A stretch of 31,104 nt of DNA, taken from positions 1 to 31,104 of the IMG/VR virus record IMGVR_UViG_3300022885_000061, one strand, 5' to 3'. A program made the position numbers and the translations under genes. The stretch's first letter is position 1. The number at the start of each line of letters is the position of its first letter. Positions 7,593 to 18,254 of the stretch are shown here, piece after piece. Below the pieces are notes generated by a model. It searched no databases. It saw only the letters and a list, made by a program, of their open reading frames with translations, and was not told the DNA's origin. Origin of the DNA: a virus. Taxonomy: Duplodnaviria > Caudoviricetes.

Positions 7593-10437
7593 ATGATCCG
7601 TATATATCTGTTATAGAAACTAACCTATCTTTGTCAATAGTTCCACCTTCTTTTTTCCTATATAAATACATAGGTCCAGTCTGAGCTGAACTCGTGGATA
7701 TATCTAAAACGTACATAGGAACCGATTGAGGGTTAAATTCGTCAAACATAAATTGAGCCTCTTTAAGATCCTGTGTTGTATAATCATCACTTAGTTTAAA
7801 AGAACTATCTTGCATGACTCTACCTTCAGGAACTCTACCCTTGACAATTCTTTGTATAATTTCAGAACCATCCTCTTGTTTAAATGAAACAAAAGCTTTT
7901 GTATTTTCTAAGCCATAGCTATCATCAAAAGCCTTAATTTGTCGTAGTACATCCTCATCATCCATACTTTTTTTAAAATTAATTTGTGGTACTTCCTCTA
8001 TTATTTCACCAGATAATTCCTCAAAGGTTCCATCAGCTTGAAGTCTTTTACCAAAAAAACTAGCTTCAGGCTTGGAGGGATCTTGAATATTTTCTAGTCT
8101 AAGTTCTGATCCTGGATATTTCTTTTTAATATTTTTTAATTCTTGAATCATCTTTTTGTCATACAAATCTCTAAATCGTTTTGCAGCATCTCCTGTCTTA
8201 CCCCATCTTTTATTGGCTCCCACGTCAGCTGGCATAATAGCAATTTTCTTTATACCTTTATTTTGAGCATCTTTGATTGTAGCTTTTAAAAGAAGATCGA
8301 TATAATCCCCTGGTCTAGAAAAAGGAACAGGAGGAAAAGTGTTAAGCTCTTTAGTACCTATGGAGAAGGCTCTGCCACCACCTGATTCTACGTAATCGGC
8401 TAATTCTTTTGTAATATCAGTATCTGATACATTAGGAACACGAACTCCTTGTAATTTTTGCTCATATGTATGTTCACGATTCATTGAAGCTAAATCATCA
8501 AAAATTTTTATTTGTTTATTTTGAATACCAGAAATAGAATCTTCTAGTCTCGTTGTTTGTAGAGGTGATAGATTTTGTCTATCCTTAAACAATAATCCAT
8601 CGATTTCATCTTGAAGACTTATAAGATCTGTTTGAAGTGAGGATATTCTCTCACGACCAACATTAGTTGGAAAAGGTTTAGTAACACTCATATTTTCTAA
8701 TTCTTCTATAGTTCTTCCTCCCATATTTTTTTTTATTTCTTGAAGTTTTCTCTGAGCAATATCACGATCGTTTGCGTCTGATAGAGGGTTATTATAAATT
8801 TCATTCAGCTCTTCAGATTGTTTTTTTGCTCTTTTGACCATTGCATTAAGTCTTTGTTGTTCATTATTTACTGTTGTTAACAGATCTGTTTGAAGTTCTT
8901 GAATCACGGATACAGTTTGACCATTTGTGTTTTGATAATCAGCAACACGAGTAAAGCCTATAACATTCGGTTCTTCAAAGTGAGAACTTTGAACATAAGG
9001 ACTTCTGTCATTTGGAATAGGTCCTGACTGAATTACAATTTCACGATAATTCTCTCCAAAATTATCAATTGGAGCACTTCCAAAATTTTCGTGTCTTGGT
9101 CTACCTACGTAGTCAGTATACTCTCTTTGATCTCGAAGTGTTCCTAAATCTTCTTCATATTTTGGTTTATCTTTAACTTTTATTTCTATATTACCAACTG
9201 GAGATTCATTATAAATATCAATCAATTGCTCTCTAGATATTTTTTTTCCAGGATACATCTTATCGCTATCTATAAAAAAATCTTCCATACCAGAATCAAG
9301 AAGTTCTGTTTCAGGAGCTTTAAGTTCTCCTCCTTTTAAAAACTGTCTCCATGATTCAGGTGTTGCGTTCTTAGGAGCGTTAGCAGAATTTAATTTATCA
9401 ACTGTAAAAGATTTAAAAGCAAAATCATTATCACTAATTGATTTTACAGTTGGAAGTAATGTTTCAATTCCTACGTCTGCTCCACCCATATTTTGTGTAT
9501 CAACTAATTCATTGTATAGACCTACTTCCCTAAGATTTTTAGGAGTGGCTACACCTGGAGATGTTTTAAAAAGTTTATGGAGTTTAAACGGATTAAAAGC
9601 TGTGGCTCCTTCTAGTGATTTTTCAAAAGCATCTTCTTGTTCAAAAGCTGGATCTTTCATAAAACGATCGGACATAAAATCTACGTTCTGTGTAAAATCT
9701 TCTGCTGTTCCACCCAATGCAAAACCTTTAGGTTTTTTACCACCTAATCTAGTTTTATCACTAAATTTAAAAAGATTTTTGTCTACAAGTTCACCTATAA
9801 GGTCAGCTACAATTATTTTTTTTTGTTCAAGAGGTATATCTAAATTTTGAATTAGTTCTCTTGAATTATTACCGAGTGTTTTTGTAATCATCTGAGCTAC
9901 CTCAGGACCAAATTTTTTATAAATATATTTTACTAAATCGGCACCTCCTACAACTTCAAAAGCTCCAGCTATTACTCCCATATTTTCTTCCATCTGAGTT
10001 GAAGTTCCAGCTTTGATTTTTTCTTGTAAATCACTATAATATTTTGGATCAAATAAAAACTGAGCTGTTTCTCCAAGCATTTCAAAAGGAACTTGAATCT
10101 GAGATTTTAGTCCTTTCATTCCCGTATTTGTTCGAGCTATTTTCTGAAGTTCTCCTACAGGTACATCAGGACTAGATATTTTTTTTGCTACATAATCAAT
10201 AGGTTGTGCTATTCGTTTACCCGCTTGTAATAAAAGATCTCTTGAAAAATCACTAGCTACTCCTATGGGGGTCCCTTCACCAATCATAGGCTTTAAACCT
10301 GTATTTAAATCTGTAAAAAAATTTTTTAATTTTTCATACTGTCTTTCGTTTTCTGCTATTCTACGATCAATATTTTCATCTTGACTATAGGCCGGATCTT
10401 CATCGATAAGCATATCTATGTTTCTATAATCTACCAT
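7582..10437 (-). CDS. Large protein with GNAT-like/polyvalent-protein-type region; putative ejected virion protein
   Basis: 951 aa. NYREIVI...SHFEEPNVIGFTRV...IQELQTD, then LLKATIKDAQNKGIKKIAI...LYDK, a pattern resembling the C-terminal half of GNAT folds. Function is inferred. Confidence 0.5.
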   Translation of the reverse strand: MVDYRNIDMLIDEDPAYSQDENIDRRIAENERQYEKLKNFFTDLNTGLKPMIGEGTPIGVASDFSRDLLLQAGKRIAQPIDYVAKKISSPDVPVGELQKIARTNTGMKGLKSQIQVPFEMLGETAQFLFDPKYYSDLQEKIKAGTSTQMEENMGVIAGAFEVVGGADLVKYIYKKFGPEVAQMITKTLGNNSRELIQNLDIPLEQKKIIVADLIGELVDKNLFKFSDKTRLGGKKPKGFALGGTAEDFTQNVDFMSDRFMKDPAFEQEDAFEKSLEGATAFNPFKLHKLFKTSPGVATPKNLREVGLYNELVDTQNMGGADVGIETLLPTVKSISDNDFAFKSFTVDKLNSANAPKNATPESWRQFLKGGELKAPETELLDSGMEDFFIDSDKMYPGKKISREQLIDIYNESPVGNIEIKVKDKPKYEEDLGTLRDQREYTDYVGRPRHENFGSAPIDNFGENYREIVIQSGPIPNDRSPYVQSSHFEEPNVIGFTRVADYQNTNGQTVSVIQELQTDLLTTVNNEQQRLNAMVKRAKKQSEELNEIYNNPLSDANDRDIAQRKLQEIKKNMGGRTIEELENMSVTKPFPTNVGRERISSLQTDLISLQDEIDGLLFKDRQNLSPLQTTRLEDSISGIQNKQIKIFDDLASMNREHTYEQKLQGVRVPNVSDTDITKELADYVESGGGRAFSIGTKELNTFPPVPFSRPGDYIDLLLKATIKDAQNKGIKKIAIMPADVGANKRWGKTGDAAKRFRDLYDKKMIQELKNIKKKYPGSELRLENIQDPSKPEASFFGKRLQADGTFEELSGEIIEEVPQINFKKSMDDEDVLRQIKAFDDSYGLENTKAFVSFKQEDGSEIIQRIVKGRVPEGRVMQDSSFKLSDDYTTQDLKEAQFMFDEFNPQSVPMYVLDISTSSAQTGPMYLYRKKEGGTIDKDRLVSITDIYGSYGR

Positions 10438-11906
10438 TAGTAATACTCTGTCTCTCCGTGGTCCGTGGGCTCTTCTTCTTCATCATCGAATAACCGCACA
10501 AAATTGCCTTGTCTAAATCTCATTAAGGCTTGAGTCATAGAATCTACTAAGTCGTCATGTTCACCAAACGGGAACTGTGCACACTCTTCGACCATTTCTT
10601 CAGCCCATCTTTCGTCAGGTATCCACACTACTCCACTTTCGAACAACGGGGCAACTGCGTGTACCCTTGATACTTTATCATTCCCTTTACTAGGGGTAAA
10701 GTTAATTACAGGAATACCTAAGGCTCGTAGTTCTTGGATCAAGGGCAGTCCTGATGCTTTCGCTTCAACGATCACGGTCTCCGGTTCCCAGTATTTATAT
10801 TGTTCTATAGCTGCTTTCTTGAGTTCAGGGAACTCATAACGTTCCTTGATTGAATCTAATAATAAAATATTAGGGGTTACTTCGTCAGGATAGAATACAC
10901 CCCACGTTGTAATAGCACTATAATCCCCTGTTTCCTTTTTTGTAAACGCTGTATCATAACTTTGTATAACATGCTTCAACATAGGGATATCTTTTCTATC
11001 CCAAATTCTCCACCAGTCCCTTTTGATGAGAGCTCCTTCTTCACCTGTAGGATTTTGTTGCCACTGCGCTTGCCATTTTTGTTCTGTTAAAGATGCTTTG
11101 ACAGCTTCTAGTTCTTCGAGTTTCCAATAATTAGGCCAGACCGGGGTCCCTGAAGGAAGAATAGCTGGAAATTCTATAACATCCCATTGATCCGCTTTAG
11201 GTTCACCCATGGCTTTTTGTAATTGTCCTGTGATGTCTTTTTCAGACCAACGCGTCATAACTACAACGATCGAACCTCCAGGTTGCAAACGTTGACGAGG
11301 ACCCGATGTATACCATTCCCATGTATTATCCATTGCTGTCGAAGACAAGGCGTCTTGTTCAGAATGGGGATCATCAATAATAAGTAGATCAGCACCACGA
11401 CCAGTAATAGCACCACCCACACCCGCGCCGAAATATTCACCGCCATGATTCGTTTCCCAACGTCCCGCAGCTTTAGAATCTTCTGAGAGTTTAACATCTG
11501 GAAAAACTTTTGCATAATCATTAGAGTCAATAAGGTTCCTTACCTTACGACCAAATCTGTAAGACAGTTCAGCCGTGTGAGTTGTTTGTATAATCTTGGT
11601 CTGTGGTTTGTGGCCCAAGAGCCAAGCTGGAAAGAGGTAGGACGCAAATTCTGATTTTGTATGTCTCGGTGGCATGTTCACGATTAATCGTTTTATTTCA
11701 CCTGACAAGACCTTCTCAAACTTCTCCGCGATCATTCTATGATGATCAGATTCCACGAACCCTGGCCACACTGCTTTAACGAACGTTATAAAGGAGTCTC
11801 TTGACTTACTACTTAAATCTAATTGCGCTTTACGAAGTTCAAGTTTAAGCATTGCTTCTCTTGCTTCTTCATGCGTCATTGATTCGACATCAACGTCTAA
11901 TCTCAT
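10437..11906 (-). CDS. terL: Terminase large subunit
   Basis: MPPRHTKS (Walker A), LLIIDDP (Walker B), QSYDTA and HDDLVDS nuclease motifs. ATG 11906 preferred over TTG 11942; start uncertain. Confidence 0.95.
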   Translation of the reverse strand: MRLDVDVESMTHEEAREAMLKLELRKAQLDLSSKSRDSFITFVKAVWPGFVESDHHRMIAEKFEKVLSGEIKRLIVNMPPRHTKSEFASYLFPAWLLGHKPQTKIIQTTHTAELSYRFGRKVRNLIDSNDYAKVFPDVKLSEDSKAAGRWETNHGGEYFGAGVGGAITGRGADLLIIDDPHSEQDALSSTAMDNTWEWYTSGPRQRLQPGGSIVVVMTRWSEKDITGQLQKAMGEPKADQWDVIEFPAILPSGTPVWPNYWKLEELEAVKASLTEQKWQAQWQQNPTGEEGALIKRDWWRIWDRKDIPMLKHVIQSYDTAFTKKETGDYSAITTWGVFYPDEVTPNILLLDSIKERYEFPELKKAAIEQYKYWEPETVIVEAKASGLPLIQELRALGIPVINFTPSKGNDKVSRVHAVAPLFESGVVWIPDERWAEEMVEECAQFPFGEHDDLVDSMTQALMRFRQGNFVRLFDDEEEEPTDHGETEYY

Positions 11907-12084
11907 ACTCAGACTTATATCAGATGGAATTATTTGTGGCAATCACAACCTAGGTGCCCTTCTCATAGAAGCTAGGGGCCAAATAGGGGGGCGGGGGTCA
12001 GCCACAGACCTTGATCGGTGGAAAAGCGGTCTAGGAACCTTATTAAGTAGTAGGATTTTTTGAGAGCGGGGAAAATGGAGCGAG

Positions 12085-12113
12085 AAAGAAGGGGCGGGAG
12101 ATTATCCCGCCCC
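12085..12113 (-). terminator. Intrinsic terminator of cassette 1
   Basis: Perfect 9-bp stem GGGGCGGGA/TCCCGCCCC at 12091-12113, followed by TTCTTT on the minus strand. Confidence 0.85.
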
Positions 12114-12119
12114 AATCAA

Positions 12120-12362
12120 TTAAAAGTCTAAAGGATTAATTCTTCCTTGTAGCTTTGATAGTAGGTTACGACCCCATTGCTTTACCTGAGCGTCATCAGT
12201 AGTAGCAATAAGATTATAAATTTCACTACTAAGGAGATCAGCAATAGCACGATAGTCTACCTCTCTTCTTGTTTTGTTCTCACGCGTGATACGAGTTGTA
12301 TCATCAAGACGCTCTTCCACATCGGCAAAAGGTCTTAGCGTGAGATTGTTATCGTTAGGCAT
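12120..12362 (-). CDS. Hypothetical early protein, probably leaderless
   Basis: 80 aa ORF between its own promoter and terminator. No SD; ATG lies 6 nt after TAATAT. Confidence 0.75.
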   Translation of the reverse strand: MPNDNNLTLRPFADVEERLDDTTRITRENKTRREVDYRAIADLLSSEIYNLIATTDDAQVKQWGRNLLSKLQGRINPLDF

Positions 12363-12368
12363 ATAAGT

Positions 12369-12414
12369 ATATTATAGAAGTCCTAACTAATTGCAACTAA
12401 TTAGTTGTGGATAA
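12369..12414 (-). promoter_or_regulatory. Sigma70-like promoter P1 with upstream DnaA box
   Basis: TTATCCACA (12414-12406), then TTGCAA (12396-12391)-N16-TAATAT. Shares TTGYAATTAGTTAGGAC with P2. Confidence 0.7.
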
Positions 12415-12567
12415 CTTTATTTTCTTTTCAAGCACTCATCACCACATATTACCTACACACCTCATCGGCTTACCAGCAACGAAACCAAAATCAGCCTGGA
12501 GCCGTCCCGCGTGTAATAGTATATATAGTGTACATAGCTAATAGCTAAAAAGGCAATGGAGAATGGA

Positions 12568-12595
12568 GAAATGCATGGCGCAAATACGCCATGCA
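12568..12595 (-). terminator. Terminator hairpin of cassette 2
   Basis: 9-bp stem TGCATGGCG/CGCCATGCA (12572-12595), followed on minus by TTTCTCCATT, which is the repeat itself. Confidence 0.75.
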
Positions 12596-12612
12596 AAAGT
12601 GTGCCTAAACTT

Positions 12613-12960
12613 TTAATCGGCTTTGAAGGCTATCGGCTTACGACCCATGATAGCAGACATAGGAGCAACTAACTGCTCCTCCTCATCCTGATCTATTAAA
12701 GGTTTTAGTTCAATAGAATGAATGGCTTTAGTTTTATAAGATGCGTAGAGTTCAGGTTGATGTTCTCTTAACAACGCACTATCAAACTTCATGTAAGATC
12801 TATGAAGAATGTTAATCTTATGTACTTCACCTTTGATAACTTTATCGTCATCCGAAATGATAGTCTTAATAAGATCTTTCTGTTCTGTTAACTGCTTACT
12901 AATGAAATTATGTAATACAGTTAGTCTAACCAACTTATCTACTTCTTTCTTTTTGTTCAT
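12613..12960 (-). CDS. Hypothetical early protein (FD..L....P.LY..Y motif, like the C-terminal tail of YqaJ-type proteins)
   Basis: 115 aa, AGGAGG RBS, own promoter and terminator. Confidence 0.8.
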   Translation of the reverse strand: MNKKKEVDKLVRLTVLHNFISKQLTEQKDLIKTIISDDDKVIKGEVHKINILHRSYMKFDSALLREHQPELYASYKTKAIHSIELKPLIDQDEEEQLVAPMSAIMGRKPIAFKAD

Positions 12961-12988
12961 AGTTATTACCTCCTATCGGTATACTATT

Positions 12989-13044
12989 AATATAGTTATG
13001 TCCTAACTAATTACAAGTTATTATGTTAATTAAGTTGTGGATAA
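12989..13044 (-). promoter_or_regulatory. Sigma70-like promoter P2 with upstream DnaA box
   Basis: TTATCCACA (13044-13036), then TTGTAA (13016-13011)-N16-TATATT. Confidence 0.7.
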
Positions 13045-13146
13045 CTTTTTAGAGGATAGCGATCGTGCAACGCTGAGCTGTGACCGGCGGAATAATATAA
13101 TTATAGTAGCCATTGTATAAAGGGTAGAAGGGTAATGGAGAATGGA

Positions 13147-13567
13147 GAAAAGGCTTTACCATTAGCCGAGGAACTTTGCACATACTCCACTTGTGACAAA
13201 GATTAATTGATGTACCTCTTGCCTGTTGGCAATGTGGATAGGTCTACAAATACCTCGTTGTAATGGACAGAGGGTGTTAACCATATTACAGAGCGAACCT
13301 CTGCCCAAGTTTGGAGGGGAAGGACGAAGTGTCAACCTTTATAATAAAAATACCCTTCCCCAATGTTCTTAGCGTTGCGTTTCCAAGATAAGAGATTAAG
13401 CTAGATAGGTAACGAACCCTAAGAACAAAATGGCTTACACCTCCTAAAACTCTTCCCTTATCTTTAGAGGCGTCTAACTTCCTCAGCGAATCCCTAGCTT
13501 CTGCTACGGGAGAAAATAAACAAATAGCTCCTAAATTGGACTCTTGTTGTTTATGATACATTCGCAT
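13147..13567 (-). ncRNA. Candidate large structured non-coding RNA (~420 nt), family unrecognised
   Basis: At least seven helices, most of 8-12 bp, a long-range closing helix (13487-13479 with 13173-13165) and two loop-loop complementarities. Several stem imperfections are G-U only on the minus strand. It fills a whole promoter-to-repeat cassette. Confidence 0.75.
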
Positions 13568-13572
13568 AATAG

Positions 13573-13604
13573 TAATATAGTGGGATTCTCTAGGATGTCA
13601 AGAG
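13573..13604 (-). promoter_or_regulatory. Promoter P3
   Basis: TTGACA (13601-13596)-N16-TATATT (13579-13574); 28 of 32 nt identical to P4. Confidence 0.8.
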
Positions 13605-13734
13605 GAAAAGTAAAATAAAATAAAAAAACTTTTGTATGCTTCTTCCTCCACAAACCAGCTCCCAGCTCGGATAATATATAAGGGATATAGGTAAGTTAAA
13701 AAGGTAAAGAAGCAATGGAGAATGGAAAAAAGGG

Positions 13735-13887
13735 TCAGAAGAAGAGAGCAACAAACCAAACAATCGCCAGCAAGATCAGAAGCTCACCGAAAAGCAAACC
13801 AACGCCAAAGGGCACAGAGCTAATGATCTTAATAGCAATGGAAGTGAGGAGTATAGCCCACACAAACCAAATAATAAAAACAGGCAC
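13735..13887 (-). CDS. 50-aa two-helix membrane micro-protein (VPVFIIWFVWAILLTSIAIKIISSVPFGVGLLFGELLILLAIVWFVALFF)
   Basis: Hand-translated. GTG directly follows the upstream TAA; almost wholly hydrophobic; ends just before the repeat. Confidence 0.7.
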   Translation of the reverse strand: MPVFIIWFVWAILLTSIAIKIISSVPFGVGLLFGELLILLAIVWFVALFF

Positions 13888-14211
13888 TTAGGCGACGTCT
13901 TCGTCTTCAGCTTCTACCATATGATAACAATGTTCTTCAACAGCGAACCACGCCAAAAGGTTTTTTAGTTGATACATCGAGCCAACAAGTCCTCCTCGTA
14001 ATGTAGCAAGAAATTCTAGGATAGTTAGACCTTGACCCTCTGCAGATTCATAGACCATCTCCCATATTTCCTCTTCGTGTGCATCATGAAATGCAGAAGT
14101 ATCAGCGTAAGATATAAGTTCGCTCACTGTTCCGTTTATGCAACCATGCTCAACGACTTCCTTGATTTGGTCTTTGTCTAAGTTTCTTTTGATCCAGTCT
14201 TTAATGTTCAT
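13888..14211 (-). CDS. Acidic early protein (HGC..G.VSELI.Y...LKNLLAWFAVE); possible DNA mimic
   Basis: 107 aa, Glu/Asp-rich with an acidic tail (EAEDEDVA). Function is inferred. Confidence 0.75.
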   Translation of the reverse strand: MNIKDWIKRNLDKDQIKEVVEHGCINGTVSELISYADTSAFHDAHEEEIWEMVYESAEGQGLTILEFLATLRGGLVGSMYQLKNLLAWFAVEEHCYHMVEAEDEDVA

Positions 14212-14356
14212 TGTAGATTTCCTTTTCCAGCTTTGTAACTAAGTCTTGAATGTTTGCAATCACTTCCCCCTCTACCATGTAGACAGAGCCATTTGTTGGA
14301 TTGTCTAACAGGTAAGCGATCTCACATGATAGGTCGTCAATTAGTCTTTTTTTCAT
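14201..14356 (-). CDS. 51-aa hypothetical protein (MKKRLIDDLSCEIAYLLDNPTNGSVYMVEGEVIANIQDLVTKLEKEIYNEH)
   Basis: Hand-translated. AAGGAG RBS directly downstream of P4; overlaps the next start by 11 nt. Confidence 0.8.
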   Translation of the reverse strand: MKKRLIDDLSCEIAYLLDNPTNGSVYMVEGEVIANIQDLVTKLEKEIYNEH

Positions 14357-14376
14357 TTTTTGTTTCTCCTTACTAA

Positions 14377-14408
14377 TAATATAGTGGGATAAATTAGGAT
14401 GTCAAGAG
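14377..14408 (-). promoter_or_regulatory. Promoter P4
   Basis: TTGACA (14405-14400)-N16-TATATT (14383-14378); near copy of P3. Confidence 0.8.
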
Positions 14409-14532
14409 TTAAAGCAAAAAAAGTTCATCGTCATTATTTGTTTCCAGCTGAGTCCACACCGGAGAAAACCAGAGTAAAAAAGTTATCTTTAACACATAGT
14501 ATAAGAAGTTCATTGGCAATGGACAATGGAGA

Positions 14533-14606
14533 GTTGGGGTGAGCCCCGAGGACATCGAGGCTCGATTCTATGTTCGTTGGCTAACTAAAACAAAGAAGGA
14601 GATTCA
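14533..14606 (-). ncRNA. Candidate small RNA with 5' anti-SD tract and 3' hairpin
   Basis: TTGACA at 14635-14630 with an imperfect -10. The transcript would read GAAUCUCCUUCUUUGUUUUAG... and end in a 9-bp stem GAGCCUCGA/UCGGGGCUC (14563-14541; G-U on minus, mismatch on plus), then the repeat. Confidence 0.45.
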
Positions 14607-14723
14607 TCATTACACGAATCAGGCTTGGCTGTCAACCAGCACTGAGCTACCAGCCAGGCTGAACCAGCCAGGTACATGGACCTGGTATAGTATAAGGGAG
14701 GAACTAGGTAATGGAGGAATGGA

Positions 14724-15134
14724 CTAATGGAGATCGGTAGACTTCACGGGACTAGGAGCTCGCCAGGTACCCAGCAGTTCCAGAAGCTCTGGCCAGGTGC
14801 CTTGCTTAGAATTCCATAATGGAGGTTTATCAGCAATGGAGGATGGATCACGGACTATGGCCCCTGGATATAATCGGGTAGACCCTGTAAGAGGGTCCTT
14901 GGCCAGTACGAACACTGGACACCCAATGTTATAATGCTTATGTAGCCACGCAATTTGATGAGGACTGAACAGGAGCTTGTTATTTCTTATTATCTTTAAT
15001 TCAACCCAAAAAGGTCTTCTATAAAAACCAAACAAATCAGGTATTCCAAGTCCAGTATTTGATTCAATTCTTGTCCACACAACACCTTTTGTATTGTTCT
15101 TAACTTGTTTCCATAAATTATGCTCAGGTTTCAT
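14724..15134 (-). CDS. VRR-NUC/Holliday junction resolvase-like PD-(D/E)XK nuclease
   Basis: E..LW, RIE, GIPDL, WVELK and SPHQIAW motifs. Confidence 0.85.
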   Translation of the reverse strand: MKPEHNLWKQVKNNTKGVVWTRIESNTGLGIPDLFGFYRRPFWVELKIIRNNKLLFSPHQIAWLHKHYNIGCPVFVLAKDPLTGSTRLYPGAIVRDPSSIADKPPLWNSKQGTWPELLELLGTWRAPSPVKSTDLH

Positions 15135-15438
15135 GTTTTGTTATGTAACATTTCTCTGTTGTTAAATCCACATTGAGTATTTCTACTCCTAATTTTTTTT
15201 GAAGTTTTGTAGTGGGACGATCTATTCTAAATCCTTTTAGCTTACCTGTTAGTCTAAAGCTAACCGTCTTCACATCGTATAAATGAATTATACCGTTTGG
15301 ATCAACGGTGACTATATCAATACATCCTGTGTCATGAATGGTCTTGAATACTAAGTTGCCCTTCTTGAGCAACCACGTCAGAGCTATCGCTTCCGACAGG
15401 TTCCCCTTGTAATGAGTCGGATTCAATAATTTTGGCAT
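15124..15438 (-). CDS. PD-(D/E)XK endonuclease overlapping terS 3' end
   Basis: KGNLSEAIALTWLLKKG...DIV...DVKT. GGAG RBS before ATG 15438. Confidence 0.7.
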   Translation of the reverse strand: MPKLLNPTHYKGNLSEAIALTWLLKKGNLVFKTIHDTGCIDIVTVDPNGIIHLYDVKTVSFRLTGKLKGFRIDRPTTKLQKKLGVEILNVDLTTEKCYITKHET

Positions 15439-15883
15439 TGTCTCCGTTTTCTTGCAATTTTTTTCGTAATTCACTAAGCTTCTCCTCTACATCCTTGGCA
15501 GTCATCTGGTCAATACTTCCATGAAGAATTTCTTTTCTGTCAATGTATAAACCAGCAGCCATACCACGATATTTCTCTGCTGCAATCGCCCCGGTAAAAT
15601 TACCAGCAGCTACGGCTTCGTCACGTAATTTACCTAAAGCAGCTAAATGAGATTTATAATTAATGGAATATCTTCTAGATAACTCGTTACGTCTTGCTTC
15701 TATTTCAGTCACTACTAGAGGATAATATTTAGGGTTCTGTAATTTACTTGCCATCACAGTAGCACAGCTTTCTTCGTACCCAGCTTCAGTAGCACAATCT
15801 TTTCCACTCTGAAAAGTGCCTTTTGTGATCAAAATTTCCACAAATTTGCGTTGTTTTTCTGTTATATGAGGTACATTTGCCAT
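15332..15883 (-). CDS. terS: Terminase small subunit
   Basis: TEKQRKFV...A.EAGY......ASKL HTH, followed by AIAAEKYRGMAAGLY. Confidence 0.85.
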   Translation of the reverse strand: MANVPHITEKQRKFVEILITKGTFQSGKDCATEAGYEESCATVMASKLQNPKYYPLVVTEIEARRNELSRRYSINYKSHLAALGKLRDEAVAAGNFTGAIAAEKYRGMAAGLYIDRKEILHGSIDQMTAKDVEEKLSELRKKLQENGDNAKIIESDSLQGEPVGSDSSDVVAQEGQLSIQDHS

Positions 15884-15954
15884 GTTTTTTTACTTAATAT
15901 TTGTCTAAATTATACTTATTAACAACAAAAAAGCTAATGTTTTCAATAAAAAGT

Positions 15955-16052
15955 TGTAAACTGTAAATATCCCACATTATCCTAGGGAACAACTTATTTA
16001 CAGCTAGAACCCGCTATATAGTTATATTCTAGCAATCTTGTAAATATGTAAA
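15955..16052. repeat. TGTAAA repeats and dyad in divergent intergenic region
   Basis: TGTAAA at 15955, 15962, 16039 and 16047; inverted TTTACA at 15997; GCTAGAA/TTCTAGC dyad at 16003-16033. Confidence 0.65.
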
Positions 16053-16122
16053 CGCTTTTTGGGAATTTGGGTAGAGTTTAGATTATATTTCTGTAGAATA
16101 ATGTTATAGGGAGAAACAAGAA

Positions 16123-16446
16123 ATGAAGTTGCCTCAGTTTGTAACTATAGGGCCTTTTACTGTTGAGTTAGTTCTGTGTCCTCATGACATTATGTATGAG
16201 GTATCTGAAGCTCAAGGTACTTTTGTAGTTAAACCACCTTATAAAATATATCTAGATAAAGAAATGATGGAAACAGGCGGTCCAGATGCTGTTAATGTTT
16301 TAATACATGAGTTTTTACACGTAGGTTATTATCAATATCATTTAAAAGATAAAGAAGAAGAAACTGTTGTTAATTCTTACGGTAATTTTATCACAGAGTT
16401 ATTGTGTCATTCTAAAATAGGTAAATGGATTAAAGCTAATATGTAA
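16123..16446 (+). CDS. Small HExxH metallopeptidase-like protein
   Basis: LIHEFLH followed by EETVV; GGGAG RBS. Confidence 0.8.
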   Translation: MKLPQFVTIGPFTVELVLCPHDIMYEVSEAQGTFVVKPPYKIYLDKEMMETGGPDAVNVLIHEFLHVGYYQYHLKDKEEETVVNSYGNFITELLCHSKIGKWIKANM

Positions 16447-16450
16447 TTTA

Positions 16451-17320
16451 TTAGGTTAAATACGTTTCTACGTCTTGATAAGTCGCTGGATCATTTGGAT
16501 CACCATCAGGTAGTTGATCAAGCATTTCTTGTATACCAAATATACCCATATCATAATTACCACGTCTTTTATTTAATAGCATTTTTTGTTCATCAGTTAG
16601 TCCAGCCATATAAGTATTTTGTGGAGCGTTATTAATCATCATAGGATTAAGTCCGTAGTTCGTGGCTCCTGGATCTTCTTCCATTATAGGTTGATATGGT
16701 GTACCACCAATCATTCCCTTACCTAGATTAAATAGTTTATCGATTCCACCCATCATTCCATCGCGCGGCTGATTCATCTGAGGTCTGTAGTCAATTAAAT
16801 TTTGCATTCCGCCTTGCATCATATCTCTACCATTTTGCATACCATTACGAGCTCCTTGATAAAGGTTCATTAAAGTTCCGGCGCCAGGCAATACTGCGTT
16901 AGCTAGCATACTCATAACACCACCACCATAATTTTGTGCGTCTTGTCCAAGTCTTCTACGAATATCACCCATTACTTGCGAGCCTGTCGGCTGTTGCATA
17001 GTAAGATTAGGCATTTGCATTCCAAGGATACTTCTACCTTGACTATCTTTAATAACTTGATCACCACGATTTTGAAATTGATTGTAGAGAGCAAGCTTAT
17101 CGTTAAAACCACTTACATTCATAGGTCTGCCATAATCAGTGGCATTCATTTTCATCACTTGTTGATTAAGATCAGGAATACTCATTCCAGCGTCCCTGGC
17201 TTGATTTACATTAATACCCATATTTTGGGCTTGGTTCGTGGAACCCATACCGCCGCGATATTTAGAATTAAAACTATCACGCATACGCGCTTGTTTTTGT
17301 TTTTTAGTTTCTTCAGCCAT
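16451..17320 (-). CDS. Met/Gly/Gln/Asn-rich putative internal virion protein
   Basis: 289 aa low-complexity ORF, start overlapping the upstream stop codon. Confidence 0.65.
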   Translation of the reverse strand: MAEETKKQKQARMRDSFNSKYRGGMGSTNQAQNMGINVNQARDAGMSIPDLNQQVMKMNATDYGRPMNVSGFNDKLALYNQFQNRGDQVIKDSQGRSILGMQMPNLTMQQPTGSQVMGDIRRRLGQDAQNYGGGVMSMLANAVLPGAGTLMNLYQGARNGMQNGRDMMQGGMQNLIDYRPQMNQPRDGMMGGIDKLFNLGKGMIGGTPYQPIMEEDPGATNYGLNPMMINNAPQNTYMAGLTDEQKMLLNKRRGNYDMGIFGIQEMLDQLPDGDPNDPATYQDVETYLT

Positions 17321-18132
17321 TAGAATCCTAATCCTATATTAAACCGAGGTGAATTGTCACCTAAATTATAATTCATCCCTACATCCAAAGGAATATCGAA
17401 ACCTCTTTTAGAAGGATCATAACCTAACATAGACAAAATTCCTCCCACGGGATTCACTCTCATATTAGCATTGAAGGAAGGGCTTTGATTAGCACCTAAT
17501 CCTATACTAGCCCCACCATTAATAGAACTGATTAAATCACCCATTGTTCCCCCTGGATTAAAACTTCGATTATAATTAACAGTAGGCTCTCTAAATCCAT
17601 TTTGTCCATAACCTGAGTTAACACTTAATGTGCCTGGAAGAAAATCTCCTCCCTCAGTAGGAGTATAACTTCCTATCGGAGTAGAGAATCCAATGCCTCC
17701 TTGGTTATTAAGTACATCATACTCTGCGTTGAAATTACCAATACCTCCGCCAACTGGAGCTCCATAACCGAGTCTTAAAAAATCTTGATTTTGACCAAAC
17801 CCTTTTCCAGCTGCAACACTAAAAGGACTATTTGTATTTTGAAATTTTATGCCAGGCACTCCAGCTATGGCATTAAAAGAATTATTTCTAGCTTCAACTA
17901 ATCTATTAGGATTGGTAAAATCAATATTATATTGGATGGAATTGTTTCCACCTGGATCAGTAGGAGCTCTTCCGTACCTTGGTAGATCTATTGGTTCAGG
18001 CTGTTGAGGCCTTTGTGGTGAAGGTCTATTTCTATCCCTTTGCATTTGGTTCGGGGAACCCGATTGAGCTTTTCTTTCGCTTGGAGAAGGAGCGTATCTT
18101 CTAGCACTACTATGTCCAGCTCTATGAGGCAT
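17320..18132 (-). CDS. Gly/Asn-rich beta-strand protein with C-terminal FNIGLGF
   Basis: 270 aa, alternating hydrophobic strands, terminal Phe, no signal peptide. Confidence 0.65.
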   Translation of the reverse strand: MPHRAGHSSARRYAPSPSERKAQSGSPNQMQRDRNRPSPQRPQQPEPIDLPRYGRAPTDPGGNNSIQYNIDFTNPNRLVEARNNSFNAIAGVPGIKFQNTNSPFSVAAGKGFGQNQDFLRLGYGAPVGGGIGNFNAEYDVLNNQGGIGFSTPIGSYTPTEGGDFLPGTLSVNSGYGQNGFREPTVNYNRSFNPGGTMGDLISSINGGASIGLGANQSPSFNANMRVNPVGGILSMLGYDPSKRGFDIPLDVGMNYNLGDNSPRFNIGLGF

Positions 18133-18254
18133 TATTCTTTGTCTTTTTTAAATTGTTTTAAATACTCTTTAAATAATTGATCGTCTTTAGCTACTCTACG
18201 AAACTCATCTAAAAGTTTCTTTTCGGAGTCCGTGGTCAGTGATTTGTGTTTCAT
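18132..18254 (-). CDS. 40-aa micro-protein (MKHKSLTTDSEKKLLDEFRRVAKDDQLFKEYLKQFKKDKE)
   Basis: Hand-translated; TAATG overlaps at both ends. Confidence 0.75.
   Translation of the reverse strand: MKHKSLTTDSEKKLLDEFRRVAKDDQLFKEYLKQFKKDKE

Follow-up and report, generated by a model that had tools for sequence, protein, structure and literature searches.

Organization of the interval between the terminase genes

We analyzed the virus record IMGVR_UViG_3300022885_000061 (Caudoviricetes), whose 31,104 nt (the entire record, hereafter the window) encode capsid, portal, the large and small terminase subunits (terL and terS), GroES, PolA, primase and helicases. Our subject is the interval between terS and terL, which is a row of five minus-strand units, each made of a repeat, a spacer, a sigma70 promoter and cargo. 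The window's terL is 61-67% identical to those of the Pelagibacter phages HTVC023P and HTVC027P; therefore, judged by its sequence, the phage is an HTVC023P-type podovirus, and the core set of this group as listed in PMC9599517 (terL, PolA, helicases, GroES) is present in the window. SAR11 is its likely host. A host search across genome contigs returned two genome-bin matches only, both uninformative on the host, and the DNA runs matching the window best are salt-lake metagenomes. A blastn search of the interval against cultured phages gave no match.

An initial annotation, made from the sequence alone, had proposed that autonomous expression cassettes split terS from terL at this locus. Each unit indeed has its own promoter, and all the proposed cargoes are present, namely, from the terS side, a conserved small RNA (sRNA) of ~70 nt (14535..14603), a three-gene operon (13735..14356), an optional RNA unit (13150..13567), a conserved 115-aa gene with a hairpin (12572..12960; hairpin 12572-12595), and a conserved 80-aa gene with a terminator-like hairpin (12091..12362; hairpin 12091-12113). 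However, the RNA unit, described as one large RNA, consists of separate modules strung together. The array does separate terS (15332..15883, minus strand; PHROG 51/641, E 2e-5/4e-5; weak Pfam Terminase_2 match) from the downstream terL (10437..11942, minus strand; PHROG 38, E 3e-121), yet two conserved minus-strand genes (14724..15474), one of 116 aa and one of 136 aa that we take to encode a VRR-NUC-like nuclease, intervene between terS and the array.

TCCATT repeats and promoters

Exact minus-strand copies of the motif TCCATTnTCCATT are found at 12555, 13134, 13714 and 14518, with a one-mismatch copy in the 3' end of the VRR-NUC-like gene (14835-14847); these five occurrences compare with 0.40 expected, and none of 100 shuffles reached five. 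Repeat alignment and the motif scan define an extended repeat of ~35 nt, with copies 66-80% identical to the reference copy (D2), as R1 (12540..12574, core 12555-12567), R2 (13119..13153, core 13134-13146), R3 (13699..13733, core 13714-13726) and R4 (14503..14537, core 14518-14530). The four cores initially annotated at these positions fit the consensus; the fifth, R5 (14710..14731), is real but deviates from it, with three TCCATT hexamers at an 8-nt period. The window has 18 TCCATT hexamers on the coding strand, 17 of them within 12001-16000, where the opposite strand has none. Across the related loci (collected as described below), a repeat lies at most 260 nt upstream of 80 of the 83 promoters of the P3/4 type and 117 of the 120 of the P1/2 type. 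One relative, L264, has four repeat-headed spacers in series with a promoter only at the end of the last, and therefore the repeat-spacer exists independently of cargo; repeat-spacers are also doubled in L009, L011 and L013. Certain other lineages carry short repeats of their own at this location, with a 7-nt period in HTVC027P and DSL-LC04, and many have no such repeats there.

Because of their strand polarity, their confinement to the interval and their multiplication without cargo, the TCCATT doublets are likely to be protein-binding DNA sites, which agrees with the earlier suggestion that the repeats act as signals. TerS is our first, tentative candidate for the binding protein because of the position of its gene. 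Separately, GCTGG is somewhat enriched in the spacers on the minus strand of 12000-16000 (nine copies in 14001-16000), and we presume that it may be a Chi-like recombination signal.

Among the promoters, all on the minus strand, P3 (13574..13601) and P4 (14376..14405) each have an 11/12 sigma70 match, and P5 (14606..14635) has TTGACA, also present as the -35 in the relatives compared, with a weak -10. P1 (12369..12414 with its upstream 9-mer) and P2 (12989..13044, likewise), located by repeat alignment and promoter scan, share a common design and are weaker than P3 and P4; P1 is positioned such that its mRNA would be leaderless. The annotated near-identity of promoters within the two pairs was confirmed (D3, 52 nt, 81%; D14/D20), but P1 and P2 are each also preceded by a perfect DnaA-box-like 9-mer (12406-12414 and 13036-13044, respectively), which had been overlooked. 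This 9-mer, TTATCCACA, which we take to be the DnaA-box consensus, is found in 157 of 158 P1/2 contexts, in most relatives ~26-28 nt upstream of the start of the -35.

Direct repeats, AT tracts and near-invariant DnaA-box 9-mers might instead make up a replication origin with iterons, serving neither packaging nor transcription, and the GC skew does flatten at 12-15 kb. However, the boxes keep their fixed distance from the -35, one per promoter and ~600 bp apart, many other lineages lack these elements, and the phage has its own primase, helicase and polymerase, so we regard an origin as improbable. In addition, TCC(T/C)A / TAGGA half-sites lie between the -35 and -10 of four promoters (14376-14405, 13574-13601, 12989-13016 and 12369-12396); they are palindromic in many relatives, occur in HTVC027P promoters as well, and, from their sequence and placement, are likely the operator of a phage regulator.

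Gain and loss of units among related phages

Loci of relatives were collected using terL, the 115-aa gene, a promoter pattern and two module patterns, and unit order was counted over 80 distinct intervals that reach from the VRR-NUC-like gene as far as the 115-aa gene. The backbone order of sRNA, P4 operon with DUF7222 and 115-aa gene, followed by the 80-aa gene in intervals that cover it, is constant in all 80; therefore, nothing has been reordered at the level of units. An extra promoter unit at the position of the window's RNA is present in seven of the 80 intervals and is thus optional, while in six of the 80 the search pattern missed a promoter.

The RNA unit (580 bp) is precisely absent from L001 and L004, two of the six near-identical loci that span it. 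At their junction, the sequence is R3-like until ~10-16 nt beyond the core and R2-like thereafter, a mosaic within the ~35-nt repeat with R3 as the left and R2 as the right crossover, which appears to be the signature of a homologous crossover between imperfect repeats. We judged assembly collapse unlikely as the cause, as the junction is a mosaic with only a few bases identical, and both contigs share it. L004 has also gained one 8-mer at R5, and in L006 the spacer directly after R5 has been swapped and a 178-bp gene has been gained between two copies of a ribosome-binding site (RBS) with ATG. Whole-unit loss at a repeat was thus seen on aligning the intervals, as the initial annotation anticipated, but most cargo turnover lies instead behind the promoters, at RBS/linker sequences and at the borders of RNA modules. 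Furthermore, a tRNA-Cys(GCA) is the cargo immediately after the 115-aa gene in three of 60 loci (L123:3794-3867, L125:3457-3530 and L129:4373-4446). In the four DNA runs searched, contigs diverge from the window at 12570 (in a repeat), 13898 (at a stop) and 14350 (at a start).

The initial annotation had likened the locus to an integron, with a site-specific recombinase moving cassettes at the repeats. The repeat-bounded units and the one precise unit loss are what such an array would show. However, no integrase or recombinase family was matched among the 43 open reading frames (ORFs) scanned, about half of the genome lying outside the window, which bears out the annotated absence of an integrase. 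Moreover, integron cassettes vary in order and are mostly promoterless, read from one promoter, whereas the order here is invariant and every unit has its own promoter; the crossover lies off the core, within imperfect homology and at no fixed site, and repeat-spacers multiply without cargo. We therefore reject the integron explanation as extremely improbable.

Folded RNA modules as cargo

The 421-nt RNA unit is more stable than all of 100 shuffles (z -3.6) and folds as separate domains, approximately seven modules in total. One of these (~13360-13440) is common to HMO-2011-type phages. Another (~13165-13257) is a double pseudoknot supported by covariation, since 98.8% of cells are paired over 14 variants with five compensatory pairs, a result reached in none of 500 shuffles and far above slid controls, although one helix is invariant and the relatedness among the 14 variants was uncontrolled. 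A 93-aa ORF over the unit was discarded as spurious, having no family match and a frame that is not kept in related strings. ARAGORN found nothing in the window, and an Rfam search of 14 loci other than those considered below returned only two tRNA matches and two sub-threshold matches.

In the relatives, the stretch from promoter to first RBS holds strings of such folded domains. After removing three leaders that run into ORFs and trimming two, we grouped 165 distinct leaders by automatic folding and clustering into approximately 75 clusters, 54 of which occur in at least two leaders. They form 105 module architectures with one to seven modules each, and eight module pairs are seen in both orders. 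Sampled leaders (30 of 128) have a median z of -1.84, with 14 of 30 below -2, and sampled spacers (30 of 250) a median z of 0.02, with two of 30 below -2. In L267 an additional module is inserted inside the window's string, in L264 this string serves as the leader of the operon, and in the window and four relatives of another species (seven intervals altogether) it stands alone and ends at the repeat.

The modules are also shared more widely. Eleven of the 75 clusters, one of them by construction of the search, recur in tandem in HMO-2011-type contigs, which have no terL match in five of five records tested and whose primase is closest to that of the HMO-2011-type Pelagibacter phage HTVC033P (40%), and two clusters recur in other HTVC023P-type lineages. 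Long tandem arrays of shared modules are seen in this HMO-2011-type lineage in L257, L261-L263, L265, L269, L270, L273, L280, L281 and L283, the one in L257 lying directly upstream of primase and helicase. Cultured HTVC027P has an unannotated, gene-free folded string of 436 nt (L081:5165-5600, minus strand; record ~17734-18169; z -5.1) next to an early-type promoter.

We tentatively propose that the modules act as decoys for host RNA-binding proteins. The main rival is an action in cis, in which the modules would serve early transcripts as put-like antiterminators or as 5' shields against exonucleases. Most module strings lie at the 5' end of operons as leaders; this position is equally consistent with such action and to that extent counts against decoys, and in L264 and L267 the window's string precedes genes. 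Nevertheless, the stand-alone strings ending at a repeat, the many promoters without a leader, the stacking of up to seven modules and the ~75 dissimilar, interchangeable folds, which exceed the needs of one polymerase ligand, make a role in cis rather unlikely in our view. The modules might also mimic rRNA fragments and thereby titrate ribosomal proteins or rRNA-cutting enzymes. Single modules align to 16S/23S segments, with a 10-species rRNA profile the set as a whole scored slightly above four controls (17.8 vs ~17.0 bits, p 0.001-0.01), and ribosome loss in pelagiphage-infected cells is reported in PMC11066056. However, the plain rRNA test gave p 0.01-0.10, with controls yielding as many or more top scores, the structure-aware test equaled the reversed control (38.45 vs 38.5, p 0.5), and the best rRNA positions, among sequences that did not include SAR11 rRNA, moved between tests. 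We did not adopt this explanation and consider it quite improbable.

Protein cargo and the conserved small RNA

The three-gene operon, defined by ORFs, a domain match and a structure model, encodes a 51-aa protein, a 107-aa acidic DUF7222 protein and a 50-aa hydrophobic ORF. The DUF7222 model is acidic and all-helical (pLDDT 89), and of the 48,161 chains compared with it, T7 Ocr is the fourth-ranked (Z 3.9, root-mean-square deviation 4.2, 87 of 106 residues aligned), with the longest alignment among the best 50 rows listed. However, this similarity is not significant, with no Foldseek hit and an hhalign probability of 0.4%; a sequence search of the PDB gave nothing significant, and the Atlas no usable match. 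That DUF7222 is an Ocr-like DNA mimic is hence a somewhat unlikely lead from modeling, made plausible by restriction-modification being the defense found in SAR11 genomes, as reported in PMC11066056. Relatives of DUF7222 occur in staphylococcal and enterococcal myoviruses (Herelleviridae), and our literature search found no paper that names the family. The genes for the 51-aa and DUF7222 proteins (13898-14350) also occur at ~90% nucleotide identity, with different flanks, in other lake-run contigs, one of 29.5 kb.

Relatives of the 115-aa and 80-aa proteins are few. The 115-aa protein has no Pfam or PHROG match, its model (pLDDT 61) is too poor for a structure search, and of its relatives just the two weakest touch a RecE-like exonuclease family, in the non-catalytic tail. 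The conserved sRNA (z -3.0) ends in a 3' hairpin with three of 10 pairs compensatory, and its 5' pyrimidine tract (14590-14603) is the complement of the A-rich RBS/linker that relatives have at their early genes. In five relatives, the computed duplexes have energies of -12 to -18 kcal/mol, without a shuffle control, and the array genes rank outside the top eight of the 34 window RBS regions for pairing with the sRNA. A feedback or superinfection silencer acting through anti-RBS pairing is possible, as a lead only.

Two side observations concern the flanks. Upstream of terS, a 289-aa low-complexity protein rich in Met, Gly, Gln and Asn (16451-17320) has no family match, and in HTVC027P (L081) and 023Pt_psg01 (L083), terS together with some of the interval lies in inverted orientation with respect to terL.

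Expression timing and proposed function

In cultured HTVC027P, gp30-gp39 are located between terS and terL. According to Table S3 of PMC12753301, gp34-gp39 belong to the Early class, gp32-33 to the Middle and gp30-31 to the Late class, and gp35-39 have means of 1.6-2.4e5 transcripts per million in the third time column, compared with 188 for terL. By its position and promoters, the window's interval would be expressed early too, and the timing in HTVC027P supports the early host-takeover character proposed initially.

Putting these results together, we consider it probable, on balance, that the fixed row of promoter-led units is an immediate-early accessory region with exchangeable genes and with RNA strings acting as decoys; the architecture and recombination part of this explanation we hold with considerable confidence. 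Upon entry, host sigma70 RNA polymerase would fire P1-P5, with P1 and P2 tied to host DnaA. Crossovers would fall into three classes of short homology, namely the ~35-nt repeat, the promoter heads and the A-rich RBS/linkers, and the slots behind the promoters would hold small genes and RNA modules that fold by themselves and are strung together. Because each module would fold alone, any order would work, as expected of independent protein ligands. The TCCATT doublets would bind a phage protein, for which we would look to TerS first, and double as crossover points. More tentatively still, abundant marine phages from unrelated families may share an exchangeable library of dozens of small folded RNAs, placed in strings after their first promoters as a combinatorial arsenal against host proteins of RNA binding, translation or immunity, which it would titrate.

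Several further points weigh against this explanation. Four DNA runs, of 14 with matches, gave contigs with no joint for the unit deletion. Rfam gave no match in 11500-16500 of the window and in 14 loci. The cluster counts are noisy owing to the automatic folding, 70 of the 165 leaders came through the search for one module, and none of the 75 clusters matches five cultured phages; hence HTVC027P, the relative from which the timing is taken by analogy, has non-homologous cargo. RNA-library contigs do cover 13224-13546 in three of four runs compared (four of six RNA runs with matches), one of them with zero differences over 263 nt of the RNA unit, which speaks for the explanation, but such contigs give neither strand nor level and may include DNA. 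Outside the interval, the depletion of TCCATT is weak (1 observed vs 4.6 expected), and most other lineages do not show it; comparison by eye of the TerS helix-turn-helix sequence with the repeat motif in 16 TerS rows revealed no clear tracking. Finally, the HTVC023P-type group also holds a phage listed on Gammaproteobacteria.

Relation to known systems and significance

The cassette logic itself is already known, being similar to the PeSL cassettes of hyperplastic regions in T4-type phages, described as a repeated intergenic sigma70 promoter with a hairpin (PMC2839356; PMC4122927). Both have a strong sigma70 promoter, an AT-rich upstream region, a hairpin and ORFans downstream, and both gain or lose cassettes through recombination between copies, here as indels bounded by the repeat in L001, L004 and L006. 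However, PeSL number ~50 per genome as against five units in the window, which also differs in its heptad-doublet repeat 100-170 nt upstream, fixed order, DnaA box, combinatorial non-coding RNA cargo, podovirus genome and location between terS and terL. The PeSL stem-loop sits in or next to the promoter and acts as a terminator; the window's hairpins end units 130-180 nt upstream of the next promoter. A further trait of PeSL cassettes is their encapsidation as mini-circles. The HTVC027P gp34-gp39 cluster resembles the window's interval in position, sigma70-type promoters, 7-nt-period repeats and a folded gene-free string, but its repeat sequence and cargo are different and part of it is inverted. 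The main text of PMC12753301 contains none of the words promoter, intergenic or non-coding.

The early region of T7 (Ocr, gp0.3) and the takeover regions of Herelleviridae likewise have tandem host promoters and small acidic proteins, but we found no RNA library described there; non-coding RNAs of unexplained role are mentioned in Herelleviridae (PMC10383478). Viral contigs were mined for structured RNAs in PMC10690425, which may list single modules. The literature we covered, which includes three papers on HTVC023P-type phages and leaves out most subscription journals, does not describe the promoters, repeats or RNA strings of this region in the portions available. Phages are known to make small, folded decoy RNAs, some in tandem, such as the pseudo-ToxI of phage TE, RNA anti-CRISPRs and phage tRNAs. 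These copy one known host RNA, whereas the window and its relatives have dozens of unrelated folds without an identified model.

Among known marine phage groups, the HTVC023P type is reported to be the most abundant (10.1101/2019.12.14.876532), and none of the early genes in its cultured member HTVC027P has an assigned function (PMC12753301). The variable early module of these phages is now located, with a payload that is partly RNA and has been overlooked by gene-based annotation, and dozens of new RNA folds with natural variants are supplied. HTVC027P offers a cultured system with existing RNA-seq in which the idea is testable, and the repeat and the DnaA box are candidate cis signals for packaging and for sensing the state of the host. 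If the RNA arsenal is real, it would be the RNA counterpart of anti-defense protein islands.

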